Assembly (NCBI GenBank): GCA_018238155.1
Contig: JABCTZ010000046.1
Coordinates: 64,001 to 128,000, forward strand
Length of the DNA: 64,000 nt
Origin: Candidatus Heimdallarchaeota archaeon
GTDB lineage: Archaea > Asgardarchaeota > Heimdallarchaeia > JABLTI01
Direction of reading: 5' to 3'
Under the pieces are notes generated by a model that worked only from the letters and a program-made list of their open reading frames with translations, was not told the origin of the DNA and made no database searches. The translations under genes and the position numbers were made by a program. The first letter of the stretch is position 1, and each line of letters starts with the position of its first letter. Positions 32,938 to 54,758 of this stretch are shown here, in pieces.

Positions 32938-33061
32938 AATCAACTGAAAATGATTTTTCTTCCAATCCCTTTGAAATCTATTTTAATTAGAATTTCTAAC
33001 AATTCTTTGATGGTCACTATCCCCCATACTATTCTTATTGTGTGACCACTATATTAGTAAT

Positions 33062-33081
33062 TGAACTTAAAATAAAGTTCA
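33062..33081. promoter_or_regulatory. perfect palindrome TGAACTT-N6-AAGTTCA, candidate operator
   Basis: 7-bp perfect inverted repeat in the intergenic region upstream of a small ORF and the large GNAT gene. Confidence 0.4.
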
Positions 33082-33108
33082 TTGAAAATAATTAAGGTGA
33101 AAGAAAAA

Positions 33109-33198
33109 ATGGTAACACAAAAAGAAAAAGTGAGAAGAAAAGTAAAGAAAGACATAGAAAAAATACGTAATGAATCATTATTGACATTAGATATATAA
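33109..33198 (+). CDS. possible 29-aa basic leader peptide
   Basis: MVTQKEKVRRKVKKDIEKIRNESLLTLDI, preceded by an AAGGTGA SD-like sequence. Confidence 0.3.
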   Translation: MVTQKEKVRRKVKKDIEKIRNESLLTLDI

Positions 33199-33218
33199 TA
33201 ATTATAGAACACTAAGGA

Positions 33219-36200
33219 TTGAAAGTAATGACTGATAAAATGGGCTTAATTAAAAAATATGAACCATCTATGGCAAAAGCTGCAGCTGAGATGTTTAATT
33301 CATTCAAAGAGCTTTGGCCAGGAGGTTTCGGTGGTAGTGTTCCTTATACAGAACAGAGAGTTCAAGATTGGTTAGATAAAACGTCTGCGTATGCAGATCT
33401 AATTGCTGTAGATGAAGAAGGAACTTTAGCAGGATATTGTGGTTTGTATCCACATTGGCGAGACAAGAAAGCAGCATATATTTCTATCTTAGGTGTTACA
33501 CCTAAAGCACAAGGTAAGAAATTTGGAAAGAGATTATTATTAAAAGCTCTCGAGATAGCTTTAGAAAATGGTTTAACTCGTGTAGATCTCAATACATGGT
33601 CTGGAAATCTTGAAGCCGTACCATTGTACAAGAAGATTGGTTTGTTTTGGGTGCCAGAGACTGAAGTATATATGCAAGATTTTATTCCAGGAATATTGCA
33701 ATTACCTTTAGCCAAAGATTATTTTGAAAAACATCCAGATTGGTATAGTAGTTTCAAACGAGAGCTAACTCAAGCACCTGATGAGCATATAGTAGAAAAT
33801 ATGGAAATTTATTCTTATGTTTTCGAAAATGGAGAGGATAGACTTGAAGCAGAAGTTGATCGATATGGTTGGGGTTTTTGTAGTTTTAAAAGAATGTTAG
33901 ATGGAAAGAAAATTTCTATCGAAACGCGAATGAAATCACATAAGATATTTATTGGTATTCCAAATGCTATGACTATTCGAGTGCAAAATGAAAATGATCA
34001 AGATGCTAAAGTAAAACTGAAAATAGAAGCTTTTAAAGGATTGATATGGAAAGAACCCTTCCCCAAATCATTTGAACTTAAAAAAGGAGAAACTCTTGAT
34101 ATCACTCGAGAGTTTACTGTTGACAATACTACTACAGTATTCAAAGATAATAATAGAAGCTGTGAAAGAATAAAATCAACAATTTCCATTGAAGATCAAT
34201 CCATTGAGCTAATAACTAGTGGTAAAATACAATCTGCTATTGATCTCCGATCAATAAATGAAAACCGATTCATGTTTGTTCCTGTTGGGATAGAATCAGT
34301 TATTTCAATGGACCTCATCAATCACACCGATTTAGAATTAAAAGGAGAAATCAATATCAATATTCCAGGACTTGAGAATAGCAATCAATTAATTGATTTT
34401 GTAATACAACCAAACGCCATCTCTGGAATTCAAGTACCAATCACTTTTCCAATAAATATGAAGATAGATAAACTTACAATTGAAGCAACATCGTCATTTT
34501 CTTTCAATAATAAAATGGAGAAAATGCCTTGTTTTTATCATCCAATTATTGTGAAGAAAGATAATGTTATTGAATTGCTTGAATTTGAAGATACAAAAAG
34601 ACTCTACTTGGTAACAGACAAAGTTACTGTAAGAGCTGATCTTGAAGGGGGGAATCTTCGTGTTTATCAGCAAGATAATCAAGGAAATGTTCAATTACAA
34701 CATCAAGCAGGTCCACCTTTCGGACTTTCATTAGATAGAACGCTTCTACACACATACGAACTGAAGCAAAGTGGAAATTATACAACGTTAATTCTTAGTG
34801 CTAAAAGTCTCCAAGTCAAAGGTTTACATGTTAAGAAATATCTTAAAGTATCTCCTAGTTTAGATGAAGTAGAATATTGGGTTGAATATACTAATCAACT
34901 ACAGAATGGTTCCATTCATGTTTGTGGAAGAACATCATCAATTAGTGGAGGCATTACTCTCAGTCCAATGGCAGCAAAAGGAAAATCCTTTACTCCGATA
35001 AAAGGGAAAATCATTGAATGTGACTCAATTGCAGAATTTATTACAAGCCCATTGATAACCGAAGATACGAAAGATTGGTACGAAACTTGGACAGCTACAG
35101 AAGGTTTAATCTATAAAGATTTATCAACTTGGATCTGGAAACCAAACAATATTGAAAAAGTCAAAGTAAATAAAGGATCCCTTTCAAGACTTGATAGCAT
35201 AACCAAAGAAGTGAATTCAGGAGAAATCTTCAAACCAGTTCATTTGTGGTACTGTTTCGGAATGGTATCTCTACAAGAAGTTAGAAATCGCTGGAATCAG
35301 CTTGTTGGTAATACACACTTCAATTATCAAGAAGATTTTTTGGGTCCAAAAACAATCAAGTTAATTGAAGCGGAATTTGTAGATGGAAATATTGTTCGCT
35401 CAGGACAAACACATCTCAAAACAATAACATTAAATTTCAGCTCTTCATATCCGCTACAAGGTGCACTTACTCTGAAAGCACCCAAAGGGTGGCAAATTAA
35501 ATTCGTTGATGAAAAAGAAAAGAAAGAAACTATTCAACTGCCAAAATTTGTGCCTTTTATACCTATTCCAATACAAATCGAAATAATTGTCCCGGAAAAT
35601 TGCAAAGCATCTATAGAAAAATTACAATTACATCTTAGTTCTGAATTTGAACTTGATTTTAATCTTCCTGTACTCATTGCTTCAGGTGGAGAAGTTAAAA
35701 TTACAGAATCAGCTATCGGAGAAAGAAAGATCTACGAAGTATCAAACGGTTCGCTCTCATTCGTTGTACCAAGAGATATTGGTGGAAACTTGCTCAGACT
35801 AAAAGATGCAAAAGGAAAAACATTCCTAATTGATAATTTCCCAGAATTACAACCAAGATTCTTTTTCACACATAATATTGGTGGTATGCAACCAGCAGTA
35901 ATTCATTTCACAGCAAACAATCCTTTTTACAGACCAGAAATAACAACAACAGAAATAGAAGAAGATGGTCTGTGGAAGGGCATTAAATCCTCTTGGACAA
36001 TAACCAATGATAAAAAATACCTAATGGGATTAGGTGTTGAAACAACTTACCTTACTCTACCAGGTAGCAACATCATTAGAACGATAATCACTCTGAACAA
36101 CAAAACAGCAAGGAAAATGCCTTGTGGTTCAGGACTAATGGTTGACATAGGTCTAGATGGTTCTAGAGATAATAATGTAATTGAAGCTACTAGTGGAAGT

Positions 36201-36494
36201 GGTTTGTGGACACGCAATCCAGTTAAAAATCAATTTGTTGCAAATAGCTCATTTGATGAACCTTATTGTCGAGTAACGAAAGGAAAACAATCACTAGCAA
36301 TAATTATACCAGATGGCTATCCCGGATCAGCTATCTCTGTTGATCTTGTGATGATGCTATTAAATTGGATTATAAACTACACTTACGTCGAACCAAACGC
36401 AAAAACCACAACAGAAATGGCTATAATGATAAATCAACCTCGAGAGAAAATGGAAGAAGTAAGAATAGCTCTCAGGAAAAAAGTGACATTTTGA
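33219..36494 (+). CDS. large GNAT-family acetyltransferase (N-terminal GNAT plus ~900-aa beta-rich region)
   Basis: LGVTPKAQGKKFGKRLL and TWSGNLEAVPLYKKIG motifs. Confidence 0.85.
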   Translation: MKVMTDKMGLIKKYEPSMAKAAAEMFNSFKELWPGGFGGSVPYTEQRVQDWLDKTSAYADLIAVDEEGTLAGYCGLYPHWRDKKAAYISILGVTPKAQGKKFGKRLLLKALEIALENGLTRVDLNTWSGNLEAVPLYKKIGLFWVPETEVYMQDFIPGILQLPLAKDYFEKHPDWYSSFKRELTQAPDEHIVENMEIYSYVFENGEDRLEAEVDRYGWGFCSFKRMLDGKKISIETRMKSHKIFIGIPNAMTIRVQNENDQDAKVKLKIEAFKGLIWKEPFPKSFELKKGETLDITREFTVDNTTTVFKDNNRSCERIKSTISIEDQSIELITSGKIQSAIDLRSINENRFMFVPVGIESVISMDLINHTDLELKGEININIPGLENSNQLIDFVIQPNAISGIQVPITFPINMKIDKLTIEATSSFSFNNKMEKMPCFYHPIIVKKDNVIELLEFEDTKRLYLVTDKVTVRADLEGGNLRVYQQDNQGNVQLQHQAGPPFGLSLDRTLLHTYELKQSGNYTTLILSAKSLQVKGLHVKKYLKVSPSLDEVEYWVEYTNQLQNGSIHVCGRTSSISGGITLSPMAAKGKSFTPIKGKIIECDSIAEFITSPLITEDTKDWYETWTATEGLIYKDLSTWIWKPNNIEKVKVNKGSLSRLDSITKEVNSGEIFKPVHLWYCFGMVSLQEVRNRWNQLVGNTHFNYQEDFLGPKTIKLIEAEFVDGNIVRSGQTHLKTITLNFSSSYPLQGALTLKAPKGWQIKFVDEKEKKETIQLPKFVPFIPIPIQIEIIVPENCKASIEKLQLHLSSEFELDFNLPVLIASGGEVKITESAIGERKIYEVSNGSLSFVVPRDIGGNLLRLKDAKGKTFLIDNFPELQPRFFFTHNIGGMQPAVIHFTANNPFYRPEITTTEIEEDGLWKGIKSSWTITNDKKYLMGLGVETTYLTLPGSNIIRTIITLNNKTARKMPCGSGLMVDIGLDGSRDNNVIEATSGSGLWTRNPVKNQFVANSSFDEPYCRVTKGKQSLAIIIPDGYPGSAISVDLVMMLLNWIINYTYVEPNAKTTTEMAIMINQPREKMEEVRIALRKKVTF

Positions 36495-36522
36495 AAGGGA
36501 ATACCCTTTTACCTCTTTTTTT
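36494..36522 (+). terminator. hairpin plus T-tract after the GNAT gene
   Basis: AAAGGG-AATA-CCCTTT followed by a T7 run. Confidence 0.5.
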
Positions 36523-36570
36523 CACGAATATTCCTAAAGCTAAACTCTTTTTAATTGTTTTAAAGATTAG

Positions 36571-39500
36571 AATATTATCGATATCAATGGATCAGCTATA
36601 TCCAAAATTCATGCAGTAGAAATTGCGGAAGCAGATCAAGATAGCTATAACTTTTTTGAAATTCTTATGTTATCACAATTTTCATCAAATGATTCAATCT
36701 CTTCTACAGGACTGCAAATTTTTGAATCTTTTTCAACTGTAACTGATGACTATATTTATGATAATCCAACATATAGTGATGATGATTTACCTGGAGCTTC
36801 ACATTCAAATACCTTTGATAGTTTTGGTCATACGATTATTGTTGACGATGTTGATAATGATGGTATACACGAAACGATTATTGTTGGAAAAGATTATCTG
36901 AAAATATTTGGCTATGATACTTTCAATGATACGGCAATTCCATTAGTTTTGGATATCAATGATGAAACATACCCATTAATGGGTGGAGGTGCAGGAGTCT
37001 TTGATATAGATGGGGATTCCTATAATGAATTAATTGTTGGTTGTAATAATGGTACAACTTTGATTTATCAAATTGCTGATTTAAATTCCAATGATGCAAT
37101 TGAGGATTTATTAGCTATCACGGAATGGAAAGGTGATTTAGGTACCATGCCAGGTAAAAGAGGTTCAATAATAGGTTTGGATGTTGATGGAGATGGAGTA
37201 GATGAAGCAATTATTGGTGACCAATTTGGTCAAATAATCGTTCTAGGTTTAGGTGAATTGCCGACTTTTTCAATTACTTCTCCAATTGAGGGATATACTT
37301 CTAATCAAGAAACTATCTTATTTGAATGGGAAACCTCAAATGATACTTTGCCAATAATGTTCTACGAAATTTACATTAATGCTACATTTTCTTTAAGAGT
37401 TGGTGGAGCTCAAACTGGTGCAGTGATTCCTCTAGAACTGGGGAGCAATTCTATAACCATTGTTTGTACAGATATTCAAGGTAAAACTGATTCAGACAGT
37501 CGAATAGTGATATATAATGTAGGAGCACCAGTAATCGAAATAACAAAACCCGAGAACGGCTATTTGACAGATCAATCATCTATTACCATTTATTGGGTTG
37601 CATTTGATCCTCAATCAGATATACTGACGTATGAAATATATGCTAATGGTACTCTTAAAGGAACACCAACAACGTCACTACATACTTTTATTTTAGATTC
37701 AGAAGGTATTTGGAATATTACTATAATTGCAGATGATGGAGCTGGTGATAGAGTAAAAGATATGATTTATGTTATTTTTGACCGAACAGGTCCAGTCATC
37801 ACTATTACTTTACCTGCAGATGATTCTTTTGTAAGTACCGATTCAATTCATCTTCAATGGTCAGCACATGATGAGTTTACTTCTATTGATTATTATGAAA
37901 TTTATCGTGATGGATTTCTACAAGGAAATACAACATCGAAATTTTATGATGTCGATATTGCAGTAGATAAGATATATACTTTAGAAGTAATAGCCTATGA
38001 TGTTTTAGGCAATTATGATTCAGATTCAATCCAGATTACTCGAGATATGATCAACCCTTTTGTTTCCTTAGAAGCTTTAAGCTATCCAACAAATTATGAT
38101 GGTTGGTATGTTACTGATTTGGGTGATTTATTTATTGAATGGAATGGTACTGACACAGGAAGTGGCATAGACTATTTTGATGTCTTAGTAAATGATGAAC
38201 AATATGGCATCTATCCAGCTACTGCTGAGAACGACACAGTTACTCTAACAGAAGGACCAAATGATGTTGAAATAATTGCCTATGATAAAGCAGGTAACTC
38301 AGCCTCTGCTTATTACATTGTTGCTTATGATGTATCGAATCCTCTAGTAACGATTATTTCTCCAGAGAACAATCACTTAACTAGTGCAGAAAATGTAACC
38401 GTTTTCTGGGATGCTTCAGATGTAAGTTCTGGATTAAAAGAAATTTCCGTTATTGTTGACGGTTTCATTCAAGCTACTTTTACAGATTCTTCAATTAATT
38501 CATATTTAGTCAATATCTCTGAAACAAAAATTTACTCCATAACCATTCAAGTCATAGATTTTCTAGATAATTTAGCAGAAGACACTATTAATGTTGAACA
38601 TGACCCTATTTCACCAATTTTAATTGTAACTAGTCCATTAGCTGAAACTAGTTTTATCAATTCAACTTATGTAGAAGTATCTTGGGAAACTATAAACATC
38701 TCCCCAGATGAATTCGCCGTTTTTATTAATGGAACAGCTTACAATTATACTGCAACCATTTTTGATGCTATTATCAATTTAGAAGACGTATTTGGAACAA
38801 TTGATGAAAATACGTATCCAAAAGTGAATATAACTGTAGTAGCTGTTATCGGTGGCCAATATCAATATCCTAATACAAAATATGTTACTGTTGATTTAAA
38901 GAGCCCACTTGTAGCCATTAGCTCTCCTATTAATTTTGCAACGATTTCTGATGATTCAGTTGTGATAACTTGGACAGGAAGCGATATTGGTTCTGATATC
39001 AGTAGTTATACATTATGGGTAAATGATACATTAATTGGCAGCTGGGATAAGACGATTACTGTACGAGAGATAAATGTTGAAAGTTATTCTGATGGAGTAT
39101 ATATGATAATACTGGAAGGTCGAGATTTCGCGGGTAATGGTTTTAATTCAATCATTTACATCAATCTTTTCTCATCTGATCCTGAATTCACTCTTAATAT
39201 CCCAATTTCGTTACTAACTAATGACCCAAGTTTCCCATTCATAATCTCAATTACTAATCCTAGTTCAGGCATACAAGAAGTATCTGTTTTAGCAGATAAT
39301 TCAGAAATTGTTTATTATATCAATTACAATGAGAGTTATCAAGTTAATCATTTTGATATTGCGATTAATGTAGAAGAAATGAATTTTGTTTCACCAACAA
39401 ATGAACACAATTTAACAATAACAATATATGATCGTGGTGGACGAAGTGCAACTACAATAGTAAATGTTATTGTTGATAAGGAGAATCCAAATATAATCGA

Positions 39501-40623
39501 TCCAATAATTGATAGCACTTTACTAGGTCCTTATGGATTTACTATTGAAATTTCAGAAAATAGAACGGATACACATAATTTTACTTTGAAAACAACAGAT
39601 TCAAGTGGAATCCAACAAGCCAATTTACTCATCTTTAATGAAAACTACAGTTTCTCTTACATGATGACATTAGACACCGAATTTGTATCTTCTACTTTGT
39701 TTAAATTTGATGCATCCGTTAATTTTGATGATTACATTGCAGTAGTATATAGTATACAAATATCGATTACAGATAACGCTGGTAATACACATTCACAAAC
39801 ATATCAGTTACAAATCATTTTAGAAGAACAACAAATTATTTCAACACCACCAACTAGCCCTGGAGAGGTGAATCAGTGGTTAAAAGATAATCTCTTTACC
39901 ATTGTCATCCCAAGCGCTGCAGGATTACTATTAATGCTCATTTTAGCAATTATCATTTCTGTTGCAATTCGTAAGAGAGGAGTAAATCATGGTTGGCGTG
40001 ATGTTGTTAAAGCAGTCGCATATGTTACCAAAACTGGATTAACTGTCGCATATGTTCGGTACACTGAAGATATATACACTGATGAACAACTGTTTGGCGG
40101 TGCATTAACTGGTATTGTAGGTATCTTGGGAGAAATAACAGGTGAAGAAGAAGTTACTATGAAAGTTCAAACGATGGAATACGGTGGTAAACGTCTTCTT
40201 GTTTGTTCAGGAATTTTTGGAAACGCTATTCTATTAGCAAGTGAAACAAAACCCATTTTGAAAGAATTACTCAAAAAGTTCATTCTCGAATTTGAATTAA
40301 CTTACAAGTTTAATCTTGCTCAAGATATGCTTGATTTAAATGATTATGAGGCTGCTCCCTTAATGGTTGAAAGTTACTTTGGAGTGGGAATTGAGAATAT
40401 TAGAAATGATCAAGAAGCTCCTCTTACAATGGAAGATTTTGATCAAAACACCTCTGATTTTTCTCTTTCAGAGGTGCATATTGAAGAAAACTCTGAAGAA
40501 TTATCAACGAACTATAATCAAACAACTGAAACCTTAGATGAAACTCTTCCTGCTGAAGAAGTAGAACATGGTGAATCTTTTGATAATAATCAAGATTCAT
40601 TTGATGAAAACAATAATGAGTAA
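36571..40623 (+). CDS. 5'-truncated FG-GAP/Ig-repeat single-pass receptor with cytoplasmic longin-like domain (first ATG 36667)
   Basis: Homology to 41045..46567 starts abruptly at about its residue 450 (SKIHAVEIAE vs EKVHAIEIAD), right after an in-frame TAG at 36568-36570. No signal peptide. Has DxDxDG motifs, 9 Ig-like repeats, a TM, a longin-like domain and an acidic tail. Confidence 0.8.
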   Translation, partial: NIIDINGSAISKIHAVEIAEADQDSYNFFEILMLSQFSSNDSISSTGLQIFESFSTVTDDYIYDNPTYSDDDLPGASHSNTFDSFGHTIIVDDVDNDGIHETIIVGKDYLKIFGYDTFNDTAIPLVLDINDETYPLMGGGAGVFDIDGDSYNELIVGCNNGTTLIYQIADLNSNDAIEDLLAITEWKGDLGTMPGKRGSIIGLDVDGDGVDEAIIGDQFGQIIVLGLGELPTFSITSPIEGYTSNQETILFEWETSNDTLPIMFYEIYINATFSLRVGGAQTGAVIPLELGSNSITIVCTDIQGKTDSDSRIVIYNVGAPVIEITKPENGYLTDQSSITIYWVAFDPQSDILTYEIYANGTLKGTPTTSLHTFILDSEGIWNITIIADDGAGDRVKDMIYVIFDRTGPVITITLPADDSFVSTDSIHLQWSAHDEFTSIDYYEIYRDGFLQGNTTSKFYDVDIAVDKIYTLEVIAYDVLGNYDSDSIQITRDMINPFVSLEALSYPTNYDGWYVTDLGDLFIEWNGTDTGSGIDYFDVLVNDEQYGIYPATAENDTVTLTEGPNDVEIIAYDKAGNSASAYYIVAYDVSNPLVTIISPENNHLTSAENVTVFWDASDVSSGLKEISVIVDGFIQATFTDSSINSYLVNISETKIYSITIQVIDFLDNLAEDTINVEHDPISPILIVTSPLAETSFINSTYVEVSWETINISPDEFAVFINGTAYNYTATIFDAIINLEDVFGTIDENTYPKVNITVVAVIGGQYQYPNTKYVTVDLKSPLVAISSPINFATISDDSVVITWTGSDIGSDISSYTLWVNDTLIGSWDKTITVREINVESYSDGVYMIILEGRDFAGNGFNSIIYINLFSSDPEFTLNIPISLLTNDPSFPFIISITNPSSGIQEVSVLADNSEIVYYINYNESYQVNHFDIAINVEEMNFVSPTNEHNLTITIYDRGGRSATTIVNVIVDKENPNIIDPIIDSTLLGPYGFTIEISENRTDTHNFTLKTTDSSGIQQANLLIFNENYSFSYMMTLDTEFVSSTLFKFDASVNFDDYIAVVYSIQISITDNAGNTHSQTYQLQIILEEQQIISTPPTSPGEVNQWLKDNLFTIVIPSAAGLLLMLILAIIISVAIRKRGVNHGWRDVVKAVAYVTKTGLTVAYVRYTEDIYTDEQLFGGALTGIVGILGEITGEEEVTMKVQTMEYGGKRLLVCSGIFGNAILLASETKPILKELLKKFILEFELTYKFNLAQDMLDLNDYEAAPLMVESYFGVGIENIRNDQEAPLTMEDFDQNTSDFSLSEVHIEENSEELSTNYNQTTETLDETLPAEEVEHGESFDNNQDSFDENNNE

Positions 40624-40658
40624 ATGAAATACAAAACGTATTTCATATTACTTTTTTT
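40624..40658 (+). terminator. hairpin terminator
   Basis: ATGAAATAC-AAAAC-GTATTTCAT followed by a T7 run directly after the stop codon. Confidence 0.55.
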
Positions 40659-40887
40659 AAAAGTTCTTCGCAAGCTTTCTCACAGAATCCATTGATGCCA
40701 AATCGGCAACCATTAATTCTACTGCCGAATTTCCGCTTGAACTTTTAATTTCCTCTACTTCTTCTTTTCCTTTTGTGGCATCTCGACATACGAGAATTAC
40801 TTTTGCATTCATTTCCGCAAGCTCTTGGGCAACTGCTTTTCCGATTCCAGAATTAGATCCAGTAACCATACAAATTTGGTCTTTCAT
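40657..40887 (-). pseudogene. 3'-truncated short-chain dehydrogenase (retinol-DH-like), 76 aa
   Basis: VTGSNSGIGK Rossmann motif and ADLAS..SVRKLA, then a stop. No NNAG or YxxxK is recoverable downstream. Confidence 0.8.
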
Positions 40888-41044
40888 AATAAATACCATC
40901 AATCTTCTTTCAAATAACCAAGATTTCAAATCATTTAACAAAATAAAACCATTAAAGTTGTCGGTCAAAAACAAATGTGAATAATCTATAGAAATTTTCA
41001 ATATGAGTGTTAGATTGATTCACTTTTTTCATTTTTGAGAGAAA

Positions 41045-44000
41045 TCAGATATCAGACCATTTTTCAGCTATCTCATTGAACCAAATTTTAGTTGAATTTT
41101 CAATTGCTTGCTTCAACCTAAAATTGTTATTTTGTCGTCCTGCATCAATAGCTACTCTTATTTCATTGGTAATTGTTCTCATATTTTCAATAAACAACTG
41201 TAATTCAAAATTCGTTCTCTCTAATTGACGTATTAAATCTAAATCCATAATCACAGATTGTAAATGAAAATCTGCCTCATCAAAATTCTGTTCGGTTAAT
41301 GCAATTATTATAGTAGGAGTAGATGAGATTATTTTCATAAGACTTCTATTTGCTTCTCGAGATAATTGGCTTACTAGATGATCTATAGGGGAATCACTTT
41401 TATGAATTAAATCAAAATCTTTCTTATCCTTTTCAGTTGAATGGGTTACTTCAGGTTCAATATCATTGATAACATTTTGTAATTGATTTGTAATTCCAGC
41501 TTCTGGGGTTATCTCTTTTACTGAGCCAAAGATTTTTTCTACAAGTTCTTCACTACCAGAAAATGAACTACTATCCACAAAGTATAGATTTTCCAATGCA
41601 TTAGAATATTTCTTGACAAATTTGTTGTCAAATTTCTTTAGCAATTTTACATGTATTGGTTTAACTTGATTAACCATTAAAACACTAATCCCATGTTCAC
41701 CTAAGAAAAGAAACATTGTTTTGTCACCTAATTCCAAAGTTTCGATTGTTCCTTTCAGCTTCCGTCCTGAAATTTCTGTAAGCATACTTTGAATTGCTAC
41801 CATTGCACCGCCAATCAATTGTTCTTCTTGAATCAATTTAGTAACATAGTTGACACTAACACATGTTAGTCCGGTCTTCTTAACATATAGCACGGCAATA
41901 ATTTCTTCTCGCCAGTTTTTGTTTTGTATTGGTCCTCTAGTTACCGCTGCTAATAATATTGAAATAATTACGAATCCACTAATCCCTATGGAAAGATAGA
42001 GAGCATTATTTCCTTGTTGCAACCATGAATTACCTGCTTCTGGAACAATTGCCAAATTGTATGATAAACTTTGATTATTGCCTGCAAAATCAAATGTGGT
42101 GAAAATAATTGTATATTCACCTATTTCAAAATCAGCCAAACTTAGATTTAGAGAGTAAATTGCAATCTGAACTCCTTCTGTTTCAGTAATCATATCATAT
42201 GTTACAGATGAATCATCACCAAGAATAGTCATTGTAACTCCATCTAGCCCAAAATTATCTGTAACCGTTATTAAGATGGATAGAATCTTTTCGCTTCCAT
42301 TTAGTACTTCCAAACCATCTGCGGTCAATAATACAGAATTGATTGTAATATCAGGTAGTATTGTTGGTGCTTCTGTGTCGATATTAATAATATATAATTG
42401 AATCAATTCACGATTGTAATAATCAAGTACTGCAACTTCAAGTTCGTGGCTATCATCAAATCCGATAAATGATGATACATTAAAATCATATGAAATGGTA
42501 AATGACTCATTTCGTATTGATAGTTCATAATTCTCATTTACTATTTCATCATTATCTAACAATATGATTAAACCCTTTACACCGGATTGTGTATCTGTTA
42601 TCGTAAACTCAAATTGGAAATCACCATCTTGTGTATAATAAATAGTAGGGATATTTGCTTCATAGTCAGGCATTAAGATATTCAGAAGTAGTGTGATATT
42701 ACTAGTAACCCTGTTAGAAGCCAAATCTAAAACTTCAACAGTTATTAATTGTTCTCCATCTTCCTCATCAAATATTAGATAGAAATAATTCTTATCACAA
42801 GAGCAGAAATTAAGATATTGACCATTTATCAAAATTCTGTAACTATATACACCTGATCCTTGATCATTTGCTGTCCACTGAATATAAACAATATCTTGGA
42901 AATAAGTAGTATAATTTGTTGGAGTAGTTATTATAACTGTAGGTTCAGATTGATCCACAATTATCCATTTTGTATCTGAAATATTGTTACTCAATGTCTG
43001 AATAATAATTGTTAGATTAAAGAGAGGATATTCATCAATTGCGATATCACCCAAATCAATAACAGTATTTCTTGTTGAAATCTCACTAATAGTTTGATTA
43101 AGTATCTCGTTAACATAAATACAGTATGAAATGAAATTTTGAATATTTGATACATCCCATTCAATTGAAATTTGTGAATCAGAAATGTAAGATAAATTTG
43201 CTTGTGGTGTAACCAACGCAATTGAAGGGAGTGTAGAATCTTGAGTTACAGTAATCGTATCATTAAATGCGTAACCGTAAAGATCAACTACACCAATAAT
43301 TATCGAGGATGTGTGATCAAGGGCTAAAGGAACAATTGTGGTAGTTACTAGTGGATTACTTATTATTTCAATTAATATATTATCAACATAGATATTATAT
43401 TCAGATATTCCAGAACCAGTATCATTACTATACCAATTAGCAATAAAATAATCCAAACCAGTTGTGAAACCTGTTTCGGGAGAAATAATCTCAAGATAAG
43501 GAATAGTATTATCAACAAAAATGATGATATGATCAGAATCAATATTTCCTGCTAAATCATAAGTAGTTACAATGATATCTTTAACTCCTTCATTTTCTAC
43601 TGAAAATGTAGTTGTTGTTGCACCTATACCAGAATATTTTGTTTGTTGATCAACAACCACTTCAGTATGGTGAATACCTGTACCACCAATATTATCCTCT
43701 GCATCCCAATTAATAGTAATTTGATCTGATGAAGTTTTATAGCCATCAATTGGATCAGTAATCGAAATTGATGGTTTTGCTGTATCCTTCACAATTGTAA
43801 TAGAATCTATTCTTGAATTACTTAATTGATCGTATGCAGTTACTCGTAAACTGTATGTTTTATCTGTATCCAATGCTACCAATTGTGAAAGTGTGGAAGT
43901 AGTTGCATACACTTGTCCATCTTTTTCTATTACAAAATGTGATAAACCACTAAGAGCATCAGATGCTGACCATTGCATCTCAATTATTGCTAGTTTCATT

Positions 44001-46567
44001 GCTGAACCACTAATTGGAGTAGTAATTGTCATTAAAGGAGCAGTTGTGTCAACTGTTACGAATATTGAACTCCTTCCCCTATTAGATGCTAAATCAACAC
44101 CAACAACTGTGATATTATGTTCACCATCGGTATTCAAAGTTAAATCTACGAAAGTAGTTGAAAGATTATAATCTCCACCTAATTGGGATTCATCCACCCA
44201 AATTTCATAATGATTAAAATCACCATTAGGATCAAAATAATTGAATTCTATTCTAATATTGTTAGAAGCAGTTTGGAAATAATTTTCAGGAGTAGTAATA
44301 TGAATTTCTGGGGCAGTTGTAGATTGACTAACAATGATTGAATCCGAAGCACTCTTACCATTTATATCAAAACACTGGACTTTAATTGTATTACTTGATG
44401 ATGGCAATGAAACTAGAAAAGCTGCTTGGCTCCCATTCACTCTACCTTGAATTGAGCCTTCTACGAAAATATCATAATGATGGATAGTGAAGTCGTCAAG
44501 TCCTTCCCAAGTAATTAGAATAGATGTTGTTGATACAGATGAACCTGATGATGGAGAGAGAATTCTTATCTCTGGAGTGGTTGATTTTCCCAAAATTAGT
44601 ATTTGACCAAAGTTATCACCGAATATTATCTCTGTTTCTCCGTCTTCATCTAAATCATAAGCTAGAATTGACTTTCTTTTTCCAGAGGAAGAACCAATAT
44701 CACTTGACCATTCTACATTATATGACAATGAATTACTTCCAGAATCAGTAATATTGATTACATATATACTGCCGTTATTGCAACTAAAAACCAGTTCATT
44801 AAATGAGTCATCATCAACATCCCAGAGTAATGCGCCACCACCCATAAATGGAGAATTTTCATTATCATTAATTTTGAATTCTAAATGTGGTTCGGCATCT
44901 AAGAAGGAATTAACACTCAAGATTCTCAAATAATTTTGTCCTACTAAAACTATCTCTGATTCCAAATCGTTGTCAACATCTGCAACAATTATTGTATGAC
45001 CAAAATTATCTTCAGTTAAAATAGATGAAGCGGATGGTAAATTATCATTAGTATTTTCAAGGAATTTTGCCACAGTTCTCTCATAGATTTGTAATCGAGT
45101 CGTTGAAACTGAATCGTCTGAAGTTATTTGTAAATTCATAAGTATTTCATATTTACCGTCTGTATCAACATCGGCAATTTCTATTGCGTGGACTTTTTCT
45201 ACTGTATAACCAGTAACAATTGGTTTTATGGGCGCTTTTTTATCCTGTTTAAAAAGACCGGTGGCATTAACATAATCTAAAACAGAGACCTCTCCATTTT
45301 GATCACCAAATACTAAATTCATTACACCCATATTTGTTGCTTCTCCAATTGCAAGATATCCTGTTAAACTTGAAGTATGAATAAAAGCATAATCTGATTT
45401 ATCAAAATCATTCGTATCTTCGTCCCATTCTGTTAACCTTAGAATTCTGCTATCTTCCCCTGCAAGATATAATTCATCTTGTCCATTTTCATCGAAATCA
45501 TAAGCAATAATTTGCTTCACTAAAAACATCTTTAATTGATGTGTTGTAAACCAAGATGACCATATTTTGACTAATTCTCCGTCAATTGTATTATATATCG
45601 CTAATAAATTATTATCTGAAGTAACTGTTCTATTTGAGCTAACAATTAGCTCTAAATCTCCATCTCCATTTATATCAGCTGTAGTCATAAACGTTCCATT
45701 ATTAGAACCGATTGCAGAATCCTTAATATTAAAATTATCTTCAATAGAGAATTTTGTAAAATAATCACCGGAATTTTTCCCAATAAATAAATCACCCCAA
45801 AGACCTGCATTTAATCTTATATTGTTTAAAGTTGTTTCAACAAAAGGCCAAGTATTTTCCTCATTATCACCATTTAGATTTTCAAAAACTTCAAAAGCTA
45901 TTCCAGTTATTTCTCCAGGAGCTACTTGCATAAATGACAATGGAATAATTATTTCATATTGTCTATGAGAATCTTCTTTGAAGAATGATCCTTTGAAATC
46001 AGTATCAATTATTACATGTGAAGATGTCAAATTTTCCTCAAGAAACCCAGTTTCAATTTCAACCCAATAATTATTCAGAGCTGAATATTGATAGATAATT
46101 ACTAGATTATCTGTTGCATTTGATTTGTAAGATATTGCGCGGTCATTTTGACTTAACATACCATTATGATCACGATCTAAGTATACACCCATACCCCAAG
46201 TGCTTGCCGGGGATTCCGTAGTATAACTTATTACATCAACTCCAACATAGAGATTTGTATCATCATTTTTTAAAAGCAATTTAGAGGATGGATCCTGATC
46301 AGAATCATATAAATCGTATATTGCTGCAGTTGTCCATTCACTTGCAGAACTCGAAGAATTAAAATCAACAAAACCATCTATTAGAGGTATAGTATCATTC
46401 CATAATGAGAATATTTCCATTGGACTAGATACCGGTGAATGTGCTGAAATATAATTGTTTGAATGTTGATTATTTAGTACTAATGGAATAAGTATCAAAC
46501 AAACTACTAGAATCGATACTTTTGATTTGCTTATCATTTTAAGATTATTTTTAAATTTCGAGCTCAT
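41045..46567 (-). CDS. integrin-alpha-like surface receptor: signal peptide, CBM9/DOMON-like domain, FG-GAP propeller, 9 Ig-like repeats, TM, longin-like domain, helical C-terminal domain
   Basis: Six DxDxDG-type Ca-binding motifs plus one degenerate copy, repeats starting PxIxIxxP, TM ALYLSIGISGFVIISILLAAVT, then a bb-a-bbb-aa longin pattern (EEQLIGGAMVAIQSMLTEI). Confidence 0.82.
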   Translation of the reverse strand: MSSKFKNNLKMISKSKVSILVVCLILIPLVLNNQHSNNYISAHSPVSSPMEIFSLWNDTIPLIDGFVDFNSSSSASEWTTAAIYDLYDSDQDPSSKLLLKNDDTNLYVGVDVISYTTESPASTWGMGVYLDRDHNGMLSQNDRAISYKSNATDNLVIIYQYSALNNYWVEIETGFLEENLTSSHVIIDTDFKGSFFKEDSHRQYEIIIPLSFMQVAPGEITGIAFEVFENLNGDNEENTWPFVETTLNNIRLNAGLWGDLFIGKNSGDYFTKFSIEDNFNIKDSAIGSNNGTFMTTADINGDGDLELIVSSNRTVTSDNNLLAIYNTIDGELVKIWSSWFTTHQLKMFLVKQIIAYDFDENGQDELYLAGEDSRILRLTEWDEDTNDFDKSDYAFIHTSSLTGYLAIGEATNMGVMNLVFGDQNGEVSVLDYVNATGLFKQDKKAPIKPIVTGYTVEKVHAIEIADVDTDGKYEILMNLQITSDDSVSTTRLQIYERTVAKFLENTNDNLPSASSILTEDNFGHTIIVADVDNDLESEIVLVGQNYLRILSVNSFLDAEPHLEFKINDNENSPFMGGGALLWDVDDDSFNELVFSCNNGSIYVINITDSGSNSLSYNVEWSSDIGSSSGKRKSILAYDLDEDGETEIIFGDNFGQILILGKSTTPEIRILSPSSGSSVSTTSILITWEGLDDFTIHHYDIFVEGSIQGRVNGSQAAFLVSLPSSSNTIKVQCFDINGKSASDSIIVSQSTTAPEIHITTPENYFQTASNNIRIEFNYFDPNGDFNHYEIWVDESQLGGDYNLSTTFVDLTLNTDGEHNITVVGVDLASNRGRSSIFVTVDTTAPLMTITTPISGSAMKLAIIEMQWSASDALSGLSHFVIEKDGQVYATTSTLSQLVALDTDKTYSLRVTAYDQLSNSRIDSITIVKDTAKPSISITDPIDGYKTSSDQITINWDAEDNIGGTGIHHTEVVVDQQTKYSGIGATTTTFSVENEGVKDIIVTTYDLAGNIDSDHIIIFVDNTIPYLEIISPETGFTTGLDYFIANWYSNDTGSGISEYNIYVDNILIEIISNPLVTTTIVPLALDHTSSIIIGVVDLYGYAFNDTITVTQDSTLPSIALVTPQANLSYISDSQISIEWDVSNIQNFISYCIYVNEILNQTISEISTRNTVIDLGDIAIDEYPLFNLTIIIQTLSNNISDTKWIIVDQSEPTVIITTPTNYTTYFQDIVYIQWTANDQGSGVYSYRILINGQYLNFCSCDKNYFYLIFDEEDGEQLITVEVLDLASNRVTSNITLLLNILMPDYEANIPTIYYTQDGDFQFEFTITDTQSGVKGLIILLDNDEIVNENYELSIRNESFTISYDFNVSSFIGFDDSHELEVAVLDYYNRELIQLYIINIDTEAPTILPDITINSVLLTADGLEVLNGSEKILSILITVTDNFGLDGVTMTILGDDSSVTYDMITETEGVQIAIYSLNLSLADFEIGEYTIIFTTFDFAGNNQSLSYNLAIVPEAGNSWLQQGNNALYLSIGISGFVIISILLAAVTRGPIQNKNWREEIIAVLYVKKTGLTCVSVNYVTKLIQEEQLIGGAMVAIQSMLTEISGRKLKGTIETLELGDKTMFLFLGEHGISVLMVNQVKPIHVKLLKKFDNKFVKKYSNALENLYFVDSSSFSGSEELVEKIFGSVKEITPEAGITNQLQNVINDIEPEVTHSTEKDKKDFDLIHKSDSPIDHLVSQLSREANRSLMKIISSTPTIIIALTEQNFDEADFHLQSVIMDLDLIRQLERTNFELQLFIENMRTITNEIRVAIDAGRQNNNFRLKQAIENSTKIWFNEIAEKWSDI

Positions 46568-46768: not shown

Positions 46769-47677
46769 TTGAAAATCATTTGTAATCCTAATACATTTGC
46801 CGGAAAAGCACGCAAGAAATGGCCCGAATACATTAAAGCATTCAAAGAAGCGGGTCTTGATTTTGAAGTAGAATGGACAAAAGGTGTTAATGATGCTATC
46901 AGAATTACCAAAGAATCAGTTAAAGATCATAAAATTATTGGTGTCTATGGTGGCGATGGTACTGTTAACGAAGTTGTTACAGGTATAGGTCAAACAGGTT
47001 TCAAAAATACTATGGCAATATTACCTGTTGGTAGAGGGAATGACAGTGCTTATTCTTTACATCTCACCTTAAAAATGGAAGATATGGTAGAGATGCTTGT
47101 TAAGAAGGAAGTTAGAAAAGTTGATTGCACTGAGGTTAATGATGGAGAGCGATATGTCTTCGCTTTGGTCGGACTAGGTATTAGCGGTGCAGTAGCAGAA
47201 AGTGCAATAGGAACAAAATCCTCTTTTACTTATACAAAAAATCTTATCGCAAATATTTTCAAATTTAAACCAAATCACATGAAAGTTGATATTGACGACG
47301 GTAAAATAGTTCGGGAAATGAACTTTTTAGATATTGCAGTTGGAAATGGTGTTTGTGCAGGTAACAAAAAGATACTCTGTCCAGGTGCAGTTATTGATGA
47401 TGGACTCCTTGATATTACACTCATAGGTGATGTTAACTTTTTTCAAAAGTTGTTTATTCTTGGAAATTTGGACACAGGAAAACATGTCAAACATAAGAAA
47501 GTTGAACAGCTGCTTGGAAAGAAAGTTGTCGTAGAAAATTTGTCCGGTAAAAGAGTTCCAGGTCATTTTATGGGTGAGATGTTTGGAGACTACCCTTACA
47601 AATTTGTTTGTAAAAACAAAGTTTTATCCACATTAAAAATGCCTGATTATATAACAGATAAAGTAAAATGGCGCTAA
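46769..47677 (+). CDS. diacylglycerol/lipid kinase family (YegS/DgkB-like)
   Basis: NPNTFAG, GGDGTVNEV, LPVGRGND and PGAVIDDGLLD motifs. Confidence 0.9.
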   Translation: MKIICNPNTFAGKARKKWPEYIKAFKEAGLDFEVEWTKGVNDAIRITKESVKDHKIIGVYGGDGTVNEVVTGIGQTGFKNTMAILPVGRGNDSAYSLHLTLKMEDMVEMLVKKEVRKVDCTEVNDGERYVFALVGLGISGAVAESAIGTKSSFTYTKNLIANIFKFKPNHMKVDIDDGKIVREMNFLDIAVGNGVCAGNKKILCPGAVIDDGLLDITLIGDVNFFQKLFILGNLDTGKHVKHKKVEQLLGKKVVVENLSGKRVPGHFMGEMFGDYPYKFVCKNKVLSTLKMPDYITDKVKWR

Positions 47678-47828: not shown

Positions 47829-49994
47829 ATGTCAAAGGAACTTAAACAGCTGAAAAAAAGCTATCTTCTGATGTCTAAAGGAGATATCTTTACCTATATT
47901 CTACAATGTAGAAGCAAAATTGATTTGAAAGAAGACACTAAGAAAACAGCAGAATTTGCTAATATTCTCTTTGAAATTATGGAAGTTTTTAGTGAGCAAG
48001 GTGATGTCACCTCTGAACGAGTAATTTTAAATCAATTAGTGGAAATTGCTTGGTGGTCTAAGGAATTTAGTGAATTAGCAACCATTCTCTCTAAAGCAAT
48101 TTACAAACTTCTAATTGATAGCTACAGTATTCACGATTCAAGACGAATAGATCTTTTTACTGACTTTATTGACATTATTGTTAAAATCCCAAAAAACAAG
48201 GTTATTTATGATGCGATATCACAGGCATCTATTGAGCTAATTCGTTGGGGCAAAGATGATGAAATATTGGAAATTATCTCTGTCATAAAAGAGAAGTGGG
48301 CTCTTCACCCTTTAATTGATGCTATTCAATTATTAAATGCAAAAATATACTTGAATGCACTGTTCTATCTTGATGAGCAAGATTGTTCAACAATAAAAAA
48401 TCTTTATCGAAAGTTTATTGGTTTCTCAATAAGTGGTTACAAAAGTGAAAACAAAATAAATCAAGAAAAAAATGGATTACGTTTAATTTTAGGAGAAGAC
48501 ATAGATGACATATTTCAAGAGGGAGTCATCAATGCAATTCTAAATATGGCACGTATAAATAGCAAATCAGAGGAACCTTGTGAAGATTGTATCATGGGAA
48601 TTAAAGAGATACTTCAAGACTCTGATAAATTACTGAGAAAAGATGAGAAGGAATTTTATAAGGATGTATATCGATTAAGCATTACATTGGATAAATTTGA
48701 ACTCTGGGAAACGTTAGCTGATCTTCCAATTATTATTGATTTGCTCGTAGAGCGTGAGAAGAATCAACAATATAAAATTGCTGAAAGCAAACTCCTTGCT
48801 ATTCAAAAAATGATGCGAATAGAGGAATATGATTCTCTAAAAATAGGGCGAAGAGGGCTAAAACTTACTTTTGATATTAATGAAATAGAAGATATTGAAA
48901 AATTATTCAAGGAACTAGACACACAATTAGAAAAGAACGAGTCTTTCAACCTCGTAGAGGAAATTGATGCAGTAATTGATTACAATGATGATATTAAAGA
49001 ACATTTACGAGAAACAGGACAAATACCAGCTGACAGAAAAACAATTGACGAAATCCAAGATGAAACGACAAAAGGTGATGATTTAACTTTAGCTGCAACA
49101 AAAGAAGATCGAATAATAGAGCAGTTAGCATTTTTAAACCAACTTCAACTTACTGATAATAGATTTCTAATTAATCAATTAATGAATACAAAAGCACTCA
49201 TTTTTTCTGTAGGTATGCATGGCTACAATAGTGCTAAATTGAACATTTCTCGAGAGGTAATATTTGATCATGTATCTAAAATGTCTGAGAAAAAACTCAT
49301 TGTAGAATTAGTAAACCCTCTTATTCGAGCAACAACACTTAGAGCAGCACGATTAGATGGAGAAGGAACAGTATTCTTATTAGAGATTATCAACAAAATG
49401 GGGTTAAAATTTCTCTCGAAGTATTACAAACAATATAATTTTGTAAATAATATTACTCGCCTTATTAGCTTCTTAGCAAGACGAGGGGAAACTATTCTAC
49501 TTGAGAAATTGAAAATCGAAATTGAAACAGCAAATAGATTAAGTCTCAGAGATAGTGAAGTTCCTTTGAAAATCGTTCGGGCAATTAATGAAGGAATCAT
49601 TTCATTTACTTCAACAAATGAAATGAGAAAATTTGAGCTTCTAGAAATATTGAAAAACTTCACGAAAAGATATTCATATAATGAAAATATACAAATTAAA
49701 TTAGCAGAAGGCTATTCTTTTCTTATTCTAAATACCAATCCAAATGATTGGAAATCAGCAATAAAATTGGCAGATGAACTGATTATTTTTAGTAAAGAAT
49801 ATAGTAACAATCAACAAATAGAAGAAAAAGCAGCTTTGGGTTTATTATGGGCTCAGACAATCTTACATCATAAGAAGCAACGTATCAAAGAATCTCAATA
49901 TAGAAAAGAAATTAGTGTAAAATATTCAAACCATCTTGAGAGCGATTATTTACAGAAAATTAAGTCAATAAGTGAGACTTACTCTAAATCCTAA
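47829..49994 (+). CDS. hypothetical alpha-helical (solenoid-like) protein
   Basis: 721-aa ORF with an amphipathic helical pattern and no catalytic motif recognised. Confidence 0.7.
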   Translation: MSKELKQLKKSYLLMSKGDIFTYILQCRSKIDLKEDTKKTAEFANILFEIMEVFSEQGDVTSERVILNQLVEIAWWSKEFSELATILSKAIYKLLIDSYSIHDSRRIDLFTDFIDIIVKIPKNKVIYDAISQASIELIRWGKDDEILEIISVIKEKWALHPLIDAIQLLNAKIYLNALFYLDEQDCSTIKNLYRKFIGFSISGYKSENKINQEKNGLRLILGEDIDDIFQEGVINAILNMARINSKSEEPCEDCIMGIKEILQDSDKLLRKDEKEFYKDVYRLSITLDKFELWETLADLPIIIDLLVEREKNQQYKIAESKLLAIQKMMRIEEYDSLKIGRRGLKLTFDINEIEDIEKLFKELDTQLEKNESFNLVEEIDAVIDYNDDIKEHLRETGQIPADRKTIDEIQDETTKGDDLTLAATKEDRIIEQLAFLNQLQLTDNRFLINQLMNTKALIFSVGMHGYNSAKLNISREVIFDHVSKMSEKKLIVELVNPLIRATTLRAARLDGEGTVFLLEIINKMGLKFLSKYYKQYNFVNNITRLISFLARRGETILLEKLKIEIETANRLSLRDSEVPLKIVRAINEGIISFTSTNEMRKFELLEILKNFTKRYSYNENIQIKLAEGYSFLILNTNPNDWKSAIKLADELIIFSKEYSNNQQIEEKAALGLLWAQTILHHKKQRIKESQYRKEISVKYSNHLESDYLQKIKSISETYSKS

Positions 49995-51353: not shown

Positions 51354-51386
51354 AATAAAATTGAAAAATATTGAGTGTGAAAATTA

Positions 51387-51938: not shown

Positions 51939-52123
51939 GAGAGGGAATTATTTCTTTCTTCTTTTTTTTAAAAAAAAATAGCTATTTTTTCCTTCAATTT
52001 TAATTAGAAGCAAATAAAACGCTATAAAATAGTCATTTTTTTTACAAAACAATTATATTCATTCTATAGTTACTAGAATTAAATTGGCATTCAATCTATT
52101 TTAGAAATACAGGTGGCTCATTT

Positions 52124-53248: not shown

Positions 53249-53371
53249 TTCTTTTTTTTCTCTTTTTATTTAATGTATTTAGACATAAAATTAATATTTA
53301 TAAACACTTTTCTTTTCTTAGGTTTGGCAACCTTTGAACCATTACAGATAGAAACAGGTGGATTTGTCATT

Positions 53372-54508: not shown

Positions 54509-54582
54509 AACCATTAAAAATTGAGAAAGAGAAAATAATATTTCATCTCTTCAAAATACTGCTGGTACTTGAAAGAATAGAT

Positions 54583-54610: not shown

Positions 54611-54664
54611 TAACTTTCGAGTACTCTTATTGTTTAATAAAGATCAAGTGTTTTCAAATCTAAG

Positions 54665-54722: not shown

Positions 54723-54758
54723 TTATTTTGCATTAAAACAATGTTAATTCTTTGAGTA

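Follow-up and report, generated by a model that had tools for sequence, protein, structure and literature searches.

Large surface proteins of one Heimdallarchaeal genus carry a predicted longin-fold tail that belongs to an Asgard-wide family

Introduction

Longin and roadblock domains, together with small GTPases, make up the largest class of Asgard 'eukaryotic signature proteins', and their role is puzzling in cells that are almost without internal membranes. GTPase-linked roles in the superfamily are those of MglB, TRAPP, Mon1-Ccz1 and Ragulator. Here, we describe a family of very large type I cell-surface proteins, genus-specific and with about four paralogs per genome, in which a longin-superfamily domain serves as the juxtamembrane tail of an adhesin-like receptor. 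Two members, P0001 and P0002, are encoded in a stretch of 64,000 nucleotides from a Candidatus Heimdallarchaeota archaeon (assembly GCA_018238155.1, 4.08 Mb, 90.7% complete), positions 64,001 to 128,000 of contig JABCTZ010000046.1 (C7:64001-128000). This whole stretch is referred to as the window, and plain coordinates are those of the window.

The described longins differ from this tail in where they sit. In SNARE longins, the domain is N-terminal to the SNARE motif and the tail anchor, while here it lies behind the transmembrane helix at the cytoplasmic C-terminus; the remaining longin families are soluble subunits, while this tail is found on type I and polytopic membrane proteins. In Asgard archaea, the Roadblock/LC7/longin superfamily has expanded to 130 asCOGs, with lineage-specific fusions to GTPases and two-component domains (10.1101/2020.10.19.343400; PMC10933270), and 26 of the 74 small GTPases of MK-D1 are fused to roadblock or longin domains (PMC10933270). 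The proteins of Liu et al. (10.1101/2020.10.19.343400) and Tran et al. (PMC10933270) are soluble, GTPase-fused or two-component fusions, in contrast to the membrane-tethered tail described here, and the word 'transmembrane' is absent from the text of PMC10933270. The signature families listed in a recent preprint (10.64898/2026.10.28.762692) include '7TM proteins' and an Asgard structural cluster of the BBS7/ITFG2-like kind. We found no account in the literature of a membrane-tethered longin tail or of a propeller-Ig-transmembrane-longin architecture; the asCOG tables, which lie outside this search, may list the tail family or 'integrin repeat' proteins (PMC9258230). Nor did the literature search return a paper pairing 'Asgard' with 'FG-GAP' or 'Roadblock-Longin'.

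For the extracellular part, the prokaryotic FG-GAP/VCBS surface proteins (PMC3192720; PMC8023676) share both the fold of the head and its sequence family (PF13517/PF01839). No described member with a cytoplasmic longin tail was found in the literature searched or in Pfam scans of relatives. An initial annotation of the window had described the two proteins as integrin-alpha-like receptors, wired to GTPase regulation and possibly acting as a heterodimer.

The tail has a predicted longin fold

Both open reading frames (ORFs) of the initial annotation are present and convergent. P0001, of the A type, lies on the plus strand (36667-40623, 1318 amino acids, open frame from 36571) and P0002, intact and of the B type, on the minus strand (41045-46567, 1840 amino acids). 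Their identity is 33% over about 1300 residues, and P0001 can be aligned only to residues 480-1742 of P0002. In public records these proteins are called 'VCBS repeat-containing protein' or 'hypothetical', and the closest named protein relatives belong to 'Candidatus Heimdallarchaeota' and 'Asgard group' metagenome-assembled genomes (MAGs).

After the transmembrane helix, the two proteins continue with TRGPIQNKNWREE... and IRKRGVNHGWRD..., without a GFFKR motif, and then with a folded domain of about 135 residues that begins about 10 residues past the membrane. In P0002 this domain covers residues 1546-1690 (41498-41932, minus strand), as located by modelling, fold searches and profiles. In P0001 it covers residues 1107-1239 (39985-40383, plus strand), with 35% identity to the P0002 tail and a match to the tail hidden Markov model (HMM) at E 1.4e-39. 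The family signature consists of W, KxG, DxxLxGGA, EITG, GDK, PI, FxxxFExxY and F. Constraint along the gene is strongest in the tail, where the ratio of nonsynonymous to synonymous substitution rates (dN/dS) is about 0.10 (0.097 for the P0001 tail against its ortholog), compared with 0.14-0.22 for the whole genes.

An alignment of 76 tail sequences was used, and P0002 residues 1546-1690 were folded with AlphaFold2 (AF2). The model has a predicted local distance difference test score (pLDDT) of 88.8, a predicted template modelling score (pTM) of 0.84 and the order b-b-a-b-b-b-a-a. DSSP assigns strands at 11-18, 23-28, 62-68, 71-77 and 81-87, helices at 37-55 and 92-108, and a last helix at 110-135 in pieces; ahead of the first strand there is only a three-residue turn and no N-terminal helix. 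In an exhaustive structural search (VIA), the best matches are VAMP7 at Z 12.6 (4afi_B, 119 residues, root-mean-square deviation 3.7) and 12.3 (2vx8_A), followed by a synaptobrevin-like protein at 11.7, CPLANE at 11.7 (7q3d_C), Sec22 at 11.6 (3egd_C) and a Lokiarchaeal longin at 11.5 (8yqg_B). These matches cover residues 8-138, or 2-140 at most, of the predicted model, the C-terminal helices included. The topology is thus that of the eukaryotic and Asgard longins (VAMP7/Sec22/Ykt6; TRAPP Bet5/Trs23 'sybindin'; Fuzzy/Mon1-type; 8yqg), with the C-terminal helices packed alike and Z 11.5-12.6 over about 111-128 residues. GATOR1 chains match at Z 9.5, and Foldseek returns MglB, TRAPP, adaptin sigma and Ykt6. 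The initial annotation had read a tail of about 125 residues as a longin domain, and at the level of a confident prediction the longin fold is supported.

The Roadblock/LC7-MglB proteins (MglB, LAMTOR2/3 and the Asgard structures 7f8m, 7yh1 and 9jue), a known GTPase-regulating dimeric platform, share the core sheet and the central helix, and they also have top Foldseek E-values. Against MK-D1 Roadblock3 the identity is 23% over 101 residues. However, the tail has no N-terminal helix before beta1 and has two C-terminal helices, which is the longin arrangement. The roadblock/MglB matches reach Z 10-11.4 over model residues 6-111 only, and an identity as roadblock/LC7 (PF03259) was rejected on these grounds, i.e., the missing N-terminal helix, the extra C-terminal helices and matches that stop at about residue 111. 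A profilin-like fold was also rejected, as Odin profilin reaches Z 8.4, lower than the longins. Nor is this a SNARE longin protein: the order is ectodomain-transmembrane-longin, and neither Synaptobrevin nor SNARE models of Pfam match.

At the sequence level, the tail has a signature of its own that sets it apart from the named longins, and no Pfam longin model scores over its cut-off. Weak Pfam matches among the 76 tails are to Sybindin (8), Fuz_longin_1 (7), Intu_longin_1 (7), Robl_LC7 (3, best E 1e-4) and Clat_adaptor_s (1). A profile of the 76 sequences searched against PDB sequences gives yeast Bet5 at a marginal E 0.0018 (21.6 bits), a profile of two tail sequences gave nothing meaningful against PDB chains, and no NCBIfam family matches the tail.

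The tail family is found across Asgard archaea

The initial annotation had proposed a survey of the whole architecture across Asgard genomes. The tail is present in 398 of 400 Asgard genomes, usually with at least 10 positive matches per genome, while the ectodomain does not extend beyond one genus (see below). The window's own genome has 32 ORFs with the tail. An exhaustive profile search of 1.84 billion proteins returned 302 cluster representatives at E <= 1e-3, and all named matches are Asgard (Heimdall-, Hel-, Thor- or Promethearchaeota).

The tail stands directly behind the last transmembrane helix of quite different proteins (E 1e-35 to 1e-42): a 767-residue type I protein, major facilitator superfamily (MFS) transporters, 7-TM proteins with seven transmembrane helices and a 1667-residue type I protein. 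In one genome (L010:3003-6519, G206), two tandem MFS proteins of about 555 residues with 11-12 transmembrane helices end in the tail, and in another (L011:3917-5002, G127) a 361-residue 7-TM protein does so; the E-values of these tails are 1e-35 to 1e-38. The 1667-residue protein (P0066; L012:1997-7000, G124) has a different ectodomain, and its tail is followed by a wHTH-PRTase-associated domain (PF24409, E 8e-8), which differs from the helical C-terminal domain of P0002 described below. Among 76 distant members there are 16 MFS transporters, and others carry HisKA, HATPase_c, PAS, KaiC or Ig-like domains. The large distant carriers P0058, P0073, P0089, P0094 and P0120 have no Pfam domains.

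The C-termini of MFS proteins are cytoplasmic by established topology. Since the same domain ends MFS proteins, the tail is a cytoplasmic, membrane-proximal module, and the lysines and arginines that follow the transmembrane helix of P0002 agree with this. The tail is an unnamed, well-conserved Asgard-wide sequence family, and it looks like a general membrane-tethered docking module.

The 7-TM form with a longin may match the '7TM proteins' that have been listed as an Asgard signature (10.64898/2026.10.28.762692). In the ESM Atlas, the structural neighbours of the tail also include a Thermoplasmatota cluster of DUF11/CARDB surface proteins (TM-score 0.79) and bacterial OmpA/BON proteins (TM-score 0.74-0.75). 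Judged from this likeness of predicted shape, the combination of surface repeats with a membrane-proximal longin/roadblock-like domain may exist outside Asgard archaea.

The ectodomain and C-terminus of the intact copy

P0002 begins with a signal peptide or anchor at residues 1-34 (46466-46567, minus strand, as are all features of this gene), a basic stretch followed by a hydrophobic run with the hydropathy peak at residues 9-35. Next comes an all-beta N-module, residues about 40-270 (45758-46450). It is possibly CBM9-like, as suggested by a sub-threshold match to Pfam CBM9_1 (PF06452; E 0.007, 16.7 bits at a cut-off of 23.4, profile positions 1-179 of 185), which is present in two of 14 orthologs, and by a weak feature lead in the atlas to a cluster in which 11% of the members carry CBM9_1 (score 0.86). 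The AF2 model of this module is all-beta but of low confidence (pLDDT 40-85), and fold searches are dominated by the propeller. A profile of the module had no match among PDB sequences, and a word-index search brought back only fragments of its own family.

Residues 271-662 (44582-45757) form a seven-bladed FG-GAP/VCBS beta-propeller according to Pfam, the AF2 model and fold search. The match to Pfam FG-GAP_3 has E 2.2e-12 (47.8 bits, cut-off 26.9). Four canonical Dx[DN]x[DN]G motifs of the Ca2+-loop type are found (DINGDG at 298, DFDENG at 357, DVDTDG at 466 and DLDEDG at 638), and two further motifs, at about 530 and 583, are without the G. In the model, 28 strands make up seven blades of four (pLDDT about 85-95), and closed seven-bladed propellers can be superposed on model residues 237-628 along their full length, at Z 26-30. 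The highest scores are those of LGI1 EPTP (29.9), BBS2 (29.4), ITFG2 of KICSTOR (28.6) and BBS9 (28.1); integrin alpha6 (26.3), integrin alphaL (25.8) and many WD40 propellers (about 26) follow. The ESM Atlas neighbours are all FG-GAP propellers, mostly bacterial, with target-normalised TM-scores of 0.7-0.79. In this model the propeller closes, as the initial annotation had proposed for the intact copy, and it is of the generic prokaryotic FG-GAP/VCBS kind and not specifically integrin-like.

The stalk consists of nine Ig-like repeats of about 90 residues and Big_7 type, residues 663-1509 (42041-44581), five stretches of which are matched by Pfam Big_7. The Big_7 match (PF17957, cut-off 24.1) has E 1.3e-22 and 80.6 bits in P0002 and E 2.4e-21 and 76.6 bits in P0001. 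With a repeat HMM derived from P0002, nine units are recognised there and, at matching places in P0001, seven significant and two weak ones, so that nine repeats in both paralogs, as first annotated, stand. The single transmembrane helix, residues 1522-1544 (41936-42004; hydropathy and sequence), is uncharged on its N-terminal side and has K/R on the C-terminal, cytoplasmic side. Apart from the signal-like stretch at the N-terminus it is the only transmembrane segment, in agreement with the initial annotation, whose proposed check by domain-wise AlphaFold and Foldseek thus gives a longin-like tail and a closed propeller.

Beyond the longin, P0002 ends in a conserved helical domain of about 110 residues, residues about 1725-1840 (41048-41395; dN/dS 0.149 against the ortholog in G086), which the initial annotation had missed. 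The C-terminus alignment shows this domain in paralogs of types B, C and D but not in those of type A, which end in an acidic low-complexity stretch instead. It has no match in Pfam or in the atlas.

Comparison with integrins

The layout of P0002 is that of an integrin alpha chain: a type I protein whose seven-bladed FG-GAP propeller has loops of the DxDxDG type and is followed by a leg of Ig-like domains and a single transmembrane helix. However, nine Big_7-type Ig domains take the place of thigh, calf-1 and calf-2 in the leg, an additional module stands at the N-terminus, and the short GFFKR tail of integrin alpha is replaced by the folded domain of about 135 residues (and the helical domain). 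The propeller resembles prokaryotic FG-GAP/VCBS, BBS and ITFG2 propellers at least as well as that of integrins, and integrin alpha is one among many tied propellers. No Pfam match to Integrin_A_Ig (thigh/calf) is found in P0001, P0002 or the genome, and there is likewise none in the control genomes, as expected for prokaryotes. Integrin beta (PF00362) has no match in the 90.7%-complete genome, but none in the control genomes either, so this test is weak. Three of five defining features of integrin alpha were not found. What remains of the proposed integrin-alpha likeness is thus the layout, and membership of the family does not hold.

The truncated copy P0001

The initial annotation had FG-GAP repeats in both paralogs. 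P0002 has seven blades; P0001 is a 5'-deleted remnant that keeps only the last three or so (36571-37251, plus strand, aligned to P0002 residues 480-665). Position 36571 is the codon directly after an in-frame stop, the first ATG is at 36667, no signal peptide is present, and the segment 36571-36666 ahead of the ATG is still homologous to P0002. The rest of the protein follows the common order, with nine Ig-like repeats at residues 196-1053 (37252-39825; repeat HMM and Big_7), a transmembrane helix at residues 1078-1102 (39898-39972; hydropathy), the longin-fold tail and the acidic low-complexity C-terminus at residues 1240-1318 (40384-40623; sequence and C-terminus alignment).

Comparison by blastn with the closest relative (L007) places the deletion junction at 36580-36584, a 5-bp overlap: window 36003-36584 corresponds to L007 17718-17138, and window 36580-40658 to L007 15730-11631. 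About 1.4 kb is missing compared with this closest congeneric genome, made up of 51 bp of upstream DNA and about 452 codons. Promoter-proximal DNA, the signal peptide, the N-module and the first blades were lost with it. In the closest relative (G086), the A ortholog is full length, with 1806 residues and 76% identity to P0001.

No stop interrupts the frame of the remnant; measured against its ortholog, the remnant has a dN/dS of 0.215, where B has 0.144. Therefore, either the loss is recent relative to the divergence from G086, or it is an artefact of the assembly or of strain mixture. A search of public sequencing runs gave no RNA run and five DNA runs, which share only 0.04 of sampled words; four of the DNA runs were assembled. 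Their contigs represent relatives, nearly all less than 90% alike, and none runs across the junction; two relatives' contigs diverge from the window just before 36580. Without its 5' third, P0001 is most likely non-functional as a receptor.

Between the two genes there is an insertion of about 360 bp (40659-41018) that is absent from the closest relative. It carries a 114-residue ORF (40657-41001, minus strand) whose last 75 or so residues match a short-chain dehydrogenase in its N-terminal Rossmann portion (TGSNSGIGKA). This piece looks like the relic of a gene fragment. A recent assembly duplicate as its source was rejected, as the genome has no second copy.

Distribution and gene neighborhood

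The ectodomain was searched with P0002 residues 35-665 at E <= 1e-20 in 83 genomes of the class. Ten of the 83 have matches, and every one of these belongs to the window's genus. Among the ten other genomes of that genus nine match, and the tenth, without a match, is 64% complete. The better assemblies of the genus each have four full-length paralogs, while the window genome has three full copies (on C7, C1 and C44) and the P0001 remnant; the two further paralogs are unlinked to the A/B pair.

In congeneric genomes, the gene order U721, DAGK-like, B, A, GNAT-fusion and GH38 is kept. Both A and B are full length there (1781-1843 residues) and convergent, about 50 bp apart. At least four genomes of the genus keep this convergent pair, and another Asgard MAG has the two proteins under the consecutive accessions NHJ46440.1/NHJ46441.1. 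The B ortholog of G086 is 83% identical to P0002.

The two genes on the side of B code for a DAGK/YegS-type lipid kinase (46769-47677, plus strand) and the 721-residue helical protein U721 (47829-49994, plus strand). Both also adjoin B in G086 and G084, and in G090 the 721-residue protein is present beside B while the kinase was not matched. U721 belongs to no Pfam family and has no paralog in the genome. On the side of A, a GH38 alpha-mannosidase-like gene and a gene for a 1091-residue protein (30121-36494, plus strand) are syntenic with the receptor pair across the genus; the 1091-residue protein has an N-terminal GNAT acetyltransferase domain and about 950 residues of no known family.

Further along the plus strand (50190-55541), a sulfation set includes an ATP sulfurylase (50190-51353) and two sulfotransferases (52124-53248 and 53273-54508), and a 260-residue leucine-rich-repeat protein (54759-55541) comes after the sulfation genes. 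Elsewhere in the window there are a HerA/DUF87-type ATPase (26326-28059, plus strand), a prolyl oligopeptidase of family S9 with a PD40 propeller (55773-57944, minus strand) and a protein with bacterial TSP3 Ca2+-binding repeats (58810-60432, plus strand).

Discussion

The initial annotation had not recognised that transporters and 7-TM proteins across the phylum carry the same tail, and this shifts what its role most likely is. We tentatively suggest, with somewhat less than even confidence and by analogy with known relatives, that the head would bind an extracellular ligand (a glycan, a matrix or the surface of another cell), while the tail, tethered to the membrane, would serve as a platform for docking or dimerisation and bring in a cytosolic partner. 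This partner would most likely be one of the small GTPases or a GTPase regulator, as the analogy with TRAPP Bet5/Trs23, Mon1-Ccz1, MglB and Ragulator suggests, and the outcome would be a coupling of membrane proteins to localisation or signalling. The genome offers possible partners, as 40 matches to the Ras family and 18 of the Gtr1/RagA type fall on about 45 separate loci. At the level of the fold, the tail has among its ESM Atlas neighbours an Asgard cluster of 376 members that joins a similar domain to GTPase domains of the Arf/Roc/Ras kind.

Several observations weigh against this docking-platform reading. SNAREs, adaptins and SRP receptor alpha use the same fold in non-GTPase roles, so function does not follow from the fold alone. 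Tail genes lie within 5 kb of small-GTPase genes in four of 32 cases, where 3.6 are expected, i.e., there is no enrichment over random ORFs, and no small-GTPase gene stands beside the receptors. The 76 tails have neither the GP motif nor the conserved arginine of catalytic longins with GTPase-activating protein (GAP) function. Their likeness to the named longin families is marginal, with all Pfam matches under cut-off; the tail and ectodomain structures are predictions, and the N-module is poorly modelled. The direct wiring of the receptor to GTPase regulation that was first annotated is thus not borne out and stands as an analogy. Since transporters and 7-TM proteins carry the tail too, the data fit a generic role in docking, dimerisation or sorting just as well as they fit GTPase signalling.

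Two loci are local exceptions to this overall lack of linkage between longins and GTPases. At C11:62743-64550, a protein with four transmembrane helices and an N-terminal longin domain of the tail type is encoded 315 bp from a Rag/Gtr1-like GTPase gene. At C7:131447-135006, which starts about 3.4 kb past the window end, a longin-like ORF lies between two Ras-family GTPase genes.

The proteins could also be structural surface proteins or adhesins, in which the tail merely anchors or oligomerises on the inner face of the membrane, for example as a homo- or heterodimer, with no GTPase signalling. An ectodomain such as this, with a propeller and nine Ig-like domains, is typically seen in adhesins and surface proteins of prokaryotes, the tail begins only about 10 residues past the membrane, dimers are common among roadblock and longin domains (the PDB entries 8yqg and 9jue are dimers by title), domains of similar shape occur in the Thermoplasmatota DUF11/CARDB and bacterial OmpA/BON proteins, and a GTPase neighbourhood signal is absent. 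However, MFS transporters and 7-TM proteins with the same tail need no extra anchor, and a dN/dS of about 0.10 together with many conserved positions suggests a specific shared partner, which makes an adhesin without signalling possible but rather unlikely. The presence of the tail on unrelated cargo-like proteins (receptors, transporters and 7-TM proteins) would fit a tag for sorting or turnover. Such a tag would be an adaptor acting in cis, comparable to adaptin sigma/mu, SNARE longins or SRX, through which trafficking-like machinery of the Asgard cell, such as ESCRT or TRAPPC3-like proteins, would localise, cluster or remove a set of membrane proteins. Adaptin sigma/mu, COPI zeta, SRP receptor SRX and TRAPP are among the structural matches, and TRAPP Bet5 is the best sequence-profile match. 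We consider such a tag improbable, as no trafficking-machinery neighbour is kept (the neighbours scanned being the lipid kinase, GH38, GNAT and sulfation genes) and internal membranes are rare in Asgard cells according to literature quoted in PMC12290439.

Two more specific readings fare worse. Many NPRL2/FLCN-like longins are known from Asgard archaea, some of them fused to signalling domains (10.1101/2020.10.19.343400; PMC12290439), and the tail could be a catalytic GAP longin of the FLCN/SMCR8/NPRL2 type that acts on Rag- or Arf-like GTPases; the HisKA, HATPase_c or PAS domains on distant members and the GATOR1 chains among the structural matches would agree with this. Catalytic GAP longins are marked by a GP motif in the loop between beta1 and beta2, together with a conserved arginine finger (PMC12290439). 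However, judged from the alignment, this loop reads K-[ST]-G-[LIV] in the tail family, with an invariant G and no P, there is no conserved arginine column (the richest has R in 29 and K in 24 of the 76 sequences), and the longins of VAMP7, Sec22, CPLANE and TRAPP match better than GATOR1, so that a GAP of this type is hardly to be expected. It is also very unlikely that these proteins are true integrin-alpha homologs working as an obligate heterodimer of the adjacent paralogs. The propeller with its Ca2+-type loops, the Ig-like leg and the single transmembrane helix are there, A and B are convergent neighbours in the congeneric genomes and in the MAG with consecutive accessions, and their cytoplasmic ends differ systematically. 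Nevertheless, Integrin_A_Ig and Integrin_beta domains and a short tail of the GFFKR type were not found, integrin alpha is not set apart from dozens of propellers at Z of about 26, the nearest structural neighbours are bacterial FG-GAP proteins, and tandem duplication alone predicts adjacent paralogs. Further, the A copy here has neither signal peptide nor head and two more paralogs are unlinked, which makes the suggested heterodimer of the two window paralogs unlikely, even though relatives keep a full-length A/B pair. A prediction of the complex between the P0002 and P0001 tails (76-row alignments) scored 0.06 against a mark of 0.32; it was run without controls and is evidence neither way.

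The docking-platform reading can be extended to the whole family. In this form, the tail would be the common output of receptors, MFS 'transceptors' and 7-TM proteins, an Asgard-wide membrane-tethered longin that serves small GTPases as a platform of the guanine nucleotide exchange factor or GAP type or as a recruiting one. It would be an archaeal forerunner of the eukaryotic coupling of membrane proteins to GTPases, as in SLC38A9-Ragulator-Rag, TRAPP-Rab and SR-alpha/SR-beta, with the propeller-Ig receptors as one genus's adhesion- or glycan-sensing input. We regard this full version as unlikely, by analogy as it is drawn, although it is the most far-reaching.

The propeller-Ig receptor is an invention at the level of the genus, and it can be speculated that it is a candidate for the long surface structures on Asgard cells. 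The phylum-wide family of membrane-tethered longins is more interesting than the analogy with integrins. Its tail is a small, well-modelled domain at the inner face of the cell membrane, and the small-GTPase loci of the genome are a finite list of possible partners. Even a tail that served for dimerisation or sorting alone would explain a part of the longin expansion. If a GTPase partner exists, the coupling of receptors to GTPases at a membrane would predate eukaryotes.

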